A stretch of DNA of 29,559 nucleotides from Nitrospirota bacterium (GTDB lineage Bacteria > Nitrospirota > Thermodesulfovibrionia > Thermodesulfovibrionales > UBA6898). This document shows positions 29,042 through 29,559 of this stretch, piece by piece. Numbering within the stretch: the first letter of the stretch is position 1; each line of letters opens with the position of its first letter. The translations under genes were made by a program, and so were the position numbers. The stretch spans positions 1 to 29,559 of the forward strand of contig JAYWMP010000141.1 of NCBI GenBank assembly GCA_035873255.1, read 5' to 3'. The notes beneath the pieces were generated by a model. That model was not told the origin of the DNA. It did no database searches and saw only the letters and a list, made by a program, of their open reading frames with translations.

Positions 29042-29386
29042 CTAAACACCAAAATTAAGGAAGACAGGGTCTGTCCTGATTACATTGAACAGACCTTTCA
29101 GAGAACTCATGTCACCGCCTTCAATAGAATCTTCAGCCGCAAGACCGCGGGTCTGTATGCAGCCGGTTCATATGTCCACCTTAAGCCCTCTGCCGACAAG
29201 ATCGCTCAACGCGGAAAGCGCCTGGGGGAGTTGTCCCTTAACAATAGAGAAGACACCGTCTCCCGACGCGATAAGTCTGACCTTGTGTCCTTTATTCAGC
29301 GCCGCATCAGCAAGTTTTATAATCGTATGAGTATTTTCGAAACTATAGGGTGTGGTAGAGAGAAACATCACTAGCTCTTTTTGCAT
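29042..29386 (-). CDS. DsrE/TusD-like protein, probable selenoprotein (Sec at in-frame TGA 29170-29168), 114 aa
   Basis: ATG at 29386 after SD AGGAGGGT. STTPYSFEN and ASGDGV DsrE motifs. Reading through TGA gives VDI-U-TGCIQTRGLAAEDSIEGGDMSSLKGLFNVIRTDPVFLNFGV-TAG. Confidence 0.88.
29134..29165 (-). promoter_or_regulatory. Bacterial SECIS-like hairpin
   Basis: mRNA after UGA: AC-CGGCUGCA-UAC-AGACC-CGC-GGUCU-UGCGGCUG. This gives an 8-bp lower stem (2 G-U), 3-nt bulge, 5-bp upper stem and a loop with G in second position, 18 nt after UGA. Confidence 0.78.
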
Positions 29387-29486
29387 TTTCACCCTCCTGA
29401 AATTTAGAACAATATGGTTATATTCTATCATAATTGCTTTTACAGGGATACAGTATGCGGAGCTTTTCCGGCAAATCCCCCCGGAA

Positions 29487-29515
29487 TTGACCTGGATGCT
29501 ACTTTGCGCTATGCT
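29487..29515 (+). promoter_or_regulatory. Candidate sigma70 promoter pointing out of the window
   Basis: TTGACC (29487-29492), 17-nt spacer, TATGCT (29510-29515). Divergent from the dsrE-like gene. Confidence 0.4.
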
Positions 29516-29559
29516 ATAACTATAATTGTCAAGTTAAATGCAGAGATATTATTCCTTAG

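Follow-up and report, generated by a model that had tools for sequence, protein, structure and literature searches.

An open reading frame of 114 codons, interrupted at codon 73 by an in-frame TGA, was found on the minus strand of the window (the whole 29,559-nucleotide stretch of DNA that was analysed). As judged from its sequence and from those of its relatives, this frame is very probably a real DsrE-like selenoprotein gene of a magnetotactic Nitrospirota bacterium, in which UGA-73 would be a selenocysteine (Sec) codon served by a SECIS element located within the coding region. The gene is a mis-annotated member of the DsrE-like selenoprotein family catalogued since 2004-2005, to which it is likened by domain, motif and SECIS. 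The features discussed below are collected in Table 1.

Table 1. Coordinates of the DsrE-like gene, of its signals and of the genes that follow it in the window
Feature	Position	Strand	Description
DsrE-family selenoprotein gene	29042..29386	-	114 codons + TAG, predicted Sec at codon 73 (translation with TGA=U)
In-frame TGA, read as U73 in the motif U-T-G-C	29168..29170	-	aligns with the Cys of Cys-type homologs and with DsrE/TusD Cys78
Shine-Dalgarno-like AGGAGG	29393..29398	-	6 nt 5' of ATG; read from the sequence
Conserved SECIS-like hairpin	29135..29152	-	stem 29152-29146 with 29141-29135, loop GUCU 29145-29142
DsrF-like gene, 117 aa	28678..29031	-	PF02635 44.8 bits; no Cys/Sec in active-site column
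DsrH-like gene, 91 aa	28289..28564	-	PF04077 39.4 bits; third gene of the conserved trio
RomY-like gene, 130 aa	27793-28185	-	RomY N-terminal domain NF053858, 108.6 bits

The read-through frame and its product

The frame starts with the ATG codon at 29386, with an AGGAGG sequence on its 5' side. Past the TGA at codon 73, 41 further codons are open and lead to a TAG (29044-29042), which is directly followed by GGAGGG and then by the ATG (29031) of a DsrF-like gene. On direct reading, all that had been claimed of this arrangement from the sequence alone held, namely the truncating TGA at 29170-29168, the continuation over 41 codons and the TAG abutting the Shine-Dalgarno sequence of the next gene. 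The 114-residue read-through product, which includes the sequence ...KVDI-U-TGC-IQTRGL, was matched by the Pfam DsrE domain (PF02635) across the TGA, from residue 6 to residue 99 of 114, with a score of 41 bits compared to a cut-off of 22.7. A scan for promoters and terminators gave nothing decisive.

The family profile aligned the column of residue 73 (U or C) with Cys78 of Allochromatium vinosum DsrE (2hy5_A; residue counted from the printed alignment) and with the active-site Cys of Escherichia coli TusD (2d1p_A). The best match among solved structures was YchN (1jx7, E 1.5e-15), in which CKTC stands at the position of UTGC and the first Cys corresponds to the U/C column. Matches to designed PPR repeats, obtained when the single protein was compared to the PDB with phmmer, were spurious and were resolved by the family profile search. 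In the AlphaFold model (pLDDT 88, pTM 0.82), a strand (residues 69-73) ends with residue 73 and a helix (residues 74-79) begins there, and a Foldseek search with this model retrieved YchN, TusD, DsrE and DsrF with TM scores of 0.78-0.83 (0.83 for YchN, 0.81-0.83 for DsrE, YchN and TusD). In the Cys-type homologs recovered by an exhaustive profile-free search, C-x-x-C occupies the columns of UxxC, and Cys is nearly invariant in the column of residue 73 (20 sequences). The assignment of Sec to the catalytic-Cys column within a UxxC motif, as proposed by the sequence-only reading, is thus supported by the profile alignment to Cys78, with which the Cys-type homologs agree.

That standard annotation would treat the gene as a truncation had also been anticipated, and in public records the gene does appear as "DsrE family" stubs of 72 residues, next to which an orphan ORF of 38 residues is sometimes entered. 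No NCBIfam model recognises the DsrE-like gene as a selenoprotein.

Conservation of the TGA and of a downstream hairpin

When 5.8 billion proteins were searched with a word index, over 100 clusters were obtained, nearly all of them ending at exactly 72 residues, with source names that include Nitrospirota, Thermodesulfovibrionales, Dissulfurispiraceae and Candidatus Sulfobium. When 60 related genomes were searched in six frames, 39 full-length matches were obtained, each with one in-frame TGA and with identities ranging from 96% down to 40%. Among 80 species-representative genomes, the codon of the U/C column was TGA in 75 and TGC in the five others, all labelled Chloroflexota, and x-x-C followed in every case. 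A sequencing error was rejected as an explanation, since the TGA is conserved in 75 species. Assembled contigs from four metagenomes, representing 90-96% relatives, span the DsrE-like gene; no run was clearly the source sample, and these contigs carry no firm weight at the read level for 29168-29170. A TGA form with 79% identity was found on a Chloroflexota-labelled contig (L131), where its presence may be due to gene transfer or to an error in binning. A genome labelled Thermodesulfovibrio yellowstonii likewise contains a copy of the gene, with 79% identity.

The matches comprise two Sec subfamilies that are 40-50% identical. The 114-codon gene belongs to subfamily A, characterised by the motif ...KVDI-U-TGC-M/I-x-x-RGL, the corresponding motif of subfamily B being ...KVYL-U-GGC-L-N-F-RRAA. 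Some genomes (G006 and G012) harbour both paralogs, with identical hairpin geometry. Comparison with 13 subfamily-A relatives gave pN/pS ratios of 0.12 on the 5' side of the TGA, 0.21 on its 3' side and, past the hairpin described below, 0.17 over codons 86-114. Ratios of 0.17-0.21 downstream of the TGA indicate that this part of the gene is translated. The sequence-only reading had asked for checks of Cys/TGA pairing in homologs and of conservation of the post-TGA sequence; the 75 TGA and five TGC codons provide the former, and the 39 full-length alignments with these pN/pS ratios the latter.

A hairpin consisting of a 7-bp stem and a 4-nt loop begins 16 nt past the TGA. In an alignment of 30 sequences starting from the TGA, the stem corresponds to columns 19-25 paired with columns 30-36, on which manual reading and RNAalifold agree. 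At these positions 89% of the cells were paired, compared to 39-58% when the partner strand was slid by one to three columns. Four of the seven stem pairs show compensatory changes: at columns 19/36, 20/35, 21/34 and 25/30, both partners of the pair differ between the subfamilies, and A-U is exchanged for U-A, C-G for U-A (two pairs) and G-U for C-G. Inside subfamily A, pair 20/35 alternates between C-G and G-C, and pair 24/31 is U-A in place of C-G in two sequences, in which Ala is thereby replaced by Thr. Over 83 distinct Sec sequences, the apical loop was GUCU (43/43) or GUGC (39/40). The stem was paired to 90% in one Sec subfamily and to 86% in the other, compared to 57% in the five Cys forms. 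Third-codon entropy in subfamily A was 0-0.27 bits within the stem as against 0.95-1.95 bits outside it, synonymous sites being frozen only within the hairpin.

The stem of the 114-codon gene itself contains a single C-C mismatch. Three additional pairs beneath a bulge of 2 nt compensate for it and lengthen the hairpin to 29155-29134; folded alone, this hairpin has a free energy of -7.9 kcal/mol. As in bacterial SECIS elements of the fdhF/fdhA type, the stem-loop lies soon after the UGA and G-U opens the loop. The loop motif is also alike in the fdhA gene of the same genome, which presents GUGGCC-GGUCU-GGCCAC after its TGA, the corresponding sequence of the DsrE-like gene being CCGCG-GUCU-UGCGG. 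The 76-nt fold of the single sequence was no better than those of shuffled sequences (z = -0.48), and its minimum-energy structure, which differs from the conserved, covarying hairpin, was rejected as a SECIS candidate. Rfam contains no general bacterial SECIS model, hence no family score can be given for the hairpin. The earlier claim that a hairpin fitting the SECIS pattern follows the UGA therefore stands as regards a conserved, covarying 7-bp stem and does not stand as regards the single-sequence fold, which was not significant. The two paralogous Sec subfamilies, with one hairpin geometry and different sequences, form a compact set of natural examples of the way in which a coding region accommodates a SECIS.

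Selenocysteine machinery and other readings of the TGA

The genome is a 1.93-Mb draft of 308 contigs, 95% complete. It carries selA (594 bits), a full-length selB (379 bits) and selD (346 bits), all above cut-off, selD itself containing one in-frame TGA. Two fdhA genes scored above the family cut-off (C53:2889-4886 and C243:9429-11426), one with one TGA and the other without, and look like a Sec/Cys isoenzyme pair; the hairpin with the GGUCU loop belongs to the TGA copy. Canonical selC (UCA) was not found by ARAGORN and Rfam searches of the whole 308-contig genome, and BLAST with the selC of a same-genus genome and its flank detected no copy in the draft assembly. The sole Rfam tRNA-Sec match over threshold (RF01852, 50.4 bits, C34:7495-7587) has the anticodon GCA. 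The corresponding tRNA gene (C34:7493-7591; L013:1499-1597) displays the tRNA-Sec architecture, with a 6-bp D-stem and a long variable arm, and is a selC*-type tRNA-Cys, a class described by Mukai et al. and reported from Thermodesulfovibrio and Nitrospirae among others (PMC5389517). At least five related genomes have an ortholog of it with the anticodon GCA in addition to a normal selC(UCA). A canonical tRNA-Cys is encoded on contig C84.

The same-genus genome possesses tRNA-Sec(UCA) in addition to the GCA form, and selC(UCA) is present in most of the relatives searched. Since only 38 tRNA genes were detected in the draft, with none for Trp or Ile, the absence of selC is weak evidence, for which a gap in the assembly is the preferred explanation. 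Thus, of the genes selA, selB, selC and selD to which the sequence-only reading had referred, the draft provides all except selC(UCA), which the same-genus genome contains.

Other readings of the TGA have to be weighed against these data. That it is a true stop in a decaying or truncated dsrE gene, of which only the 72-residue fragment would be made, is what all public gene calls imply by ending at the TGA, and the lack of tRNA-Sec(UCA) in the assembly goes in the same direction. Such a stop would nevertheless have been kept in 75 species and in two subfamilies 40-50% identical, in front of a covarying hairpin and of 41 intact codons whose sequence is conserved and subject to purifying selection, and the resulting stub would be without its active site and would miss two strands of the fold; we regard this reading as highly improbable. 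Extremely improbable is a split gene, in which residues 1-72 would be complemented by a second polypeptide initiated at an internal ATG just past the TGA. This reading would account for the 38-aa ORF called beside the 72-aa one and for the presence of ATG at codon 77 in many subfamily-A relatives. However, codon 77 is ATA (Ile) both here and in the same-genus relative, so that an internal restart is unavailable in the 114-codon gene, where the next start codon is codon 92. Furthermore, no ribosome-binding site precedes codon 77, and a product started there would lose residues 73-76 (U/C-x-x-C), the most conserved part of the protein.

Recoding of the UGA to Cys or to another standard residue by a suppressor tRNA appears very unlikely, even though the genome offers a candidate in the selC*-class tRNA-Cys of contig C34 and selC* tRNAs whose anticodon is UCA are able to decode UGA as Cys (PMC5389517). 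The copy of this genome and those checked in relatives have the anticodon GCA, which reads UGC and UGU and not UGA, whereas the conserved SelB-type hairpin and the selA, selB and selD set point to Sec. With Sec as the preferred reading, the ribosome would read UGA-73 as selenocysteine instead of stop, and the hairpin 16 nt downstream, as a putative SelB site, would recruit SelB with Sec-tRNA(Sec). The predicted product is a 114-residue protein of about 12 kDa, with the DsrE fold, in which a Sec nucleophile, at the strand end and helix start, would replace Cys78 of DsrE/TusD, with a second thiol, Cys76, three residues after the Sec (UxxC).

The gene trio and its relation to known systems

The DsrE-like gene is followed by an F-like and an H-like gene, an order observed directly 3' of the E gene in nearly all of 80 related loci. 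The three adjacent genes are of the E/D, F/C and H/B types, and the active-site residue is found in the first only, the DsrF-like protein having Ala in this column. The nearest solved relative of the DsrF-like protein is A. vinosum DsrF (2hy5_B, E 1.3e-7), and those of the DsrH-like protein are TM0979 and DsrH. All three genes scored below the NCBIfam cut-offs for the DsrEFH/TusBCD equivalogs: 17.2 versus 89.25 bits for the DsrE-like gene (TIGR03012), 23.9 versus 94.15 bits for the DsrF-like gene (TIGR03010) and 45.2 versus 49.2 bits for the DsrH-like gene (TIGR03011). In the genome, dsrAB is located on contig C87, dsrC on contig C194 and four tusA-like genes elsewhere; no link of the trio to dsrAB/dsrC or to tusA/tusE/mnmA was detected at the locus, nor any to dsr genes in relatives. 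Therefore, the DsrEFH-like trio announced by the sequence-only reading was recovered as far as the F-like and H-like genes directly 3' of the E gene are concerned, and falls short of DsrEFH proper, given the equivalog cut-offs that were failed and the lack of a dsr or tus context. The predicted-complex score of the pair formed by the F-like and H-like proteins was 0.02, a value that counts neither for nor against binding.

In relatives, the usual operon (L080:7645-12693 and most of L100-L179) opens with the gene for an ArsR/BigR-like regulator, which is followed by E(U), F and H and then by genes for an SQR-like flavoprotein, for an MMPL/RND transporter and for a small YgaP-like membrane protein. 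The best named NCBIfam match of the ArsR-family regulator is BigR, below cut-off, and the SQR-like flavoprotein (Pyr_redox_2) weakly matches "type III SQR, selenoprotein subtype". In the genome under study, no SQR-like gene was found with the query from relatives, and the matches to the ArsR and MMPL genes of relatives were distant ones (24-35% identity) located on other contigs; the trio is followed on its 3' side by a RomY-like gene and ftsEX.

If assembled with its neighbours, the Sec-containing DsrE would form, with the DsrF-like subunit devoid of an active-site residue and the DsrH-like subunit, a hetero-oligomer of the DsrEFH/TusBCD type in which the selenol would bear sulfane sulfur in an Se-S adduct, or which would cycle through a selenenyl-sulfide with Cys76. 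We give this proposal about an even chance. As to the pathway, the ArsR/BigR-like, SQR-like and MMPL operon partners of the relatives point to sulfide or persulfide handling rather than to tRNA thiolation or a classical dsr operon; for the present genus, in which these partners are missing, such a role is a tentative suggestion. It is a tentative possibility, on the doubtful side, that the Sec-containing E subunit and its F/H-like partners are the carrier of an undescribed sulfide/persulfide (or selenium) module of Thermodesulfovibrionia, consisting of a BigR-like ArsR regulator, DsrE(U)FH, an SQR-like flavoprotein and an MMPL exporter. Were this so, selenium would make a sulfane-sulfur carrier more reactive, and the hidden E subunit would alter the use of "dsrEFH" as a sulfur-oxidation marker in this class.

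We consider it unlikely that the trio is a true DsrEFH that supplies the DsrAB pathway with sulfur through DsrC; if it were, the rule that dsrEFH denotes a sulfur oxidiser would hold for these Nitrospirota. This would fit the presence of dsrAB, dsrC and four tusA-like genes in the genome, the proximity of the second gene to A. vinosum DsrF among solved structures and the Sec in the Cys78 column; moreover, the two partner genes are already named dsrFH in surveys (PMC11033732). By contrast, all three genes are far or just below the equivalog cut-offs, the neighbours in relatives are not dsr genes but ArsR, SQR-like and MMPL genes, nor are there dsr neighbours here, and UxxC/CxxC is the motif of YchN and not that of DsrE and TusD, in which a single Cys is present. 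The trio, being below the DsrEFH equivalog cut-offs, is not to be taken as an oxidation marker. dsrEFH serves as a marker separating sulfur oxidisers from reducers, and according to one survey most Thermodesulfovibrionia "possess dsrFH, but no dsrE" (PMC11033732). The missing dsrE is probably the Sec-truncated E gene, its annotation as a 72-residue stub being the probable explanation of this published pattern. The value of the present analysis lies in an annotation correction and in a caution on dsrEFH as a metabolic marker. "DsrEFH-like" is a fair name for the trio, "DsrEFH" is not.

Several other features of the region and of the genome were recorded. The position of the RomY-like gene beside ftsEX was unexpected; two paralogs of it are located on contigs C159 and C213. 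In Myxococcus, RomY regulates the polarity GTPase MglA. Elsewhere in the genome, a second, conventional sulfur-carrier pair is formed by a TusA-like gene and an adjoining DsrE-family paralog without internal stops (C185:19264-20244). In a sister genome, fdhD lies divergently upstream of the trio operon. Homology to this genome ends at position 29482 of the window, positions 29483-29559 being unmatched. The sister spacer between the trio operon and fdhD (L082:7370-7740) contains a dispersed repeat of about 100-350 nt, for which BLAST detected some 50 matches in the genome under study, many near contig ends; this repeat is probably why the contig, and the assembly generally, breaks there.

Among systems already described, the closest in kind are the catalogued DsrE-like selenoproteins, and the earlier statement that such proteins had been predicted computationally is correct. 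A "DsrE-like protein" with PF02635 and UxxC was represented by two sequences with a predicted SECIS in the Sargasso Sea study of Zhang et al. 2005 (PMC1088965), and the 2006 bacterial survey of Zhang et al. reported a DsrE-like selenoprotein in Desulfovibrio vulgaris (PMC1794560). The family is also listed, with reference to Kryukov & Gladyshev 2004, in a 2026 review (PMC13188914), which describes such selenoprotein families as functionally uncharacterised. WP_014524487.1 is one of the published DsrE-like selenoproteins. The gene described here shares with them the PF02635 domain, UxxC with one Sec, a SECIS with G in the apical loop and the existence of Cys-type homologs. It differs in that it heads a trio of E/F/H-like genes, whereas the catalogues give neither function nor partners, and in that there are two paralogous Sec subfamilies, both common across Thermodesulfovibrionia, to one of which it belongs.

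With DsrEFH of A. vinosum (2HY5), the sulfur donor to DsrC, the trio has in common three consecutive genes of the E, F and H types, the same fold and an active-site residue confined to the E subunit in the Cys78 column. Here, however, Sec takes the place of Cys, a second Cys completes UxxC, no dsr operon surrounds the genes, the scores are below cut-off and the proteins are shorter (about 114 versus 130 residues). A similar balance applies to TusBCD of E. coli (2D1P), which acts in the sulfur relay to 2-thiouridine in tRNA: the fold, the three-subunit gene logic and the Cys78 column are alike, whereas the TIGR03012 score is 17 versus 89 bits, neither tusE nor mnmA is nearby and the motif is UxxC.

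YchN of E. coli is a stand-alone protein that forms a homo-oligomer, and we know of no function for it. Its structure (1JX7) resembles the model at a TM score of 0.83, with CKTC where UTGC stands, that is, with a CxxC at the strand/helix junction of a fold of ~115 residues. The DsrE-like gene differs from it by its F-like and H-like partner genes, YchN being encoded by a stand-alone gene.
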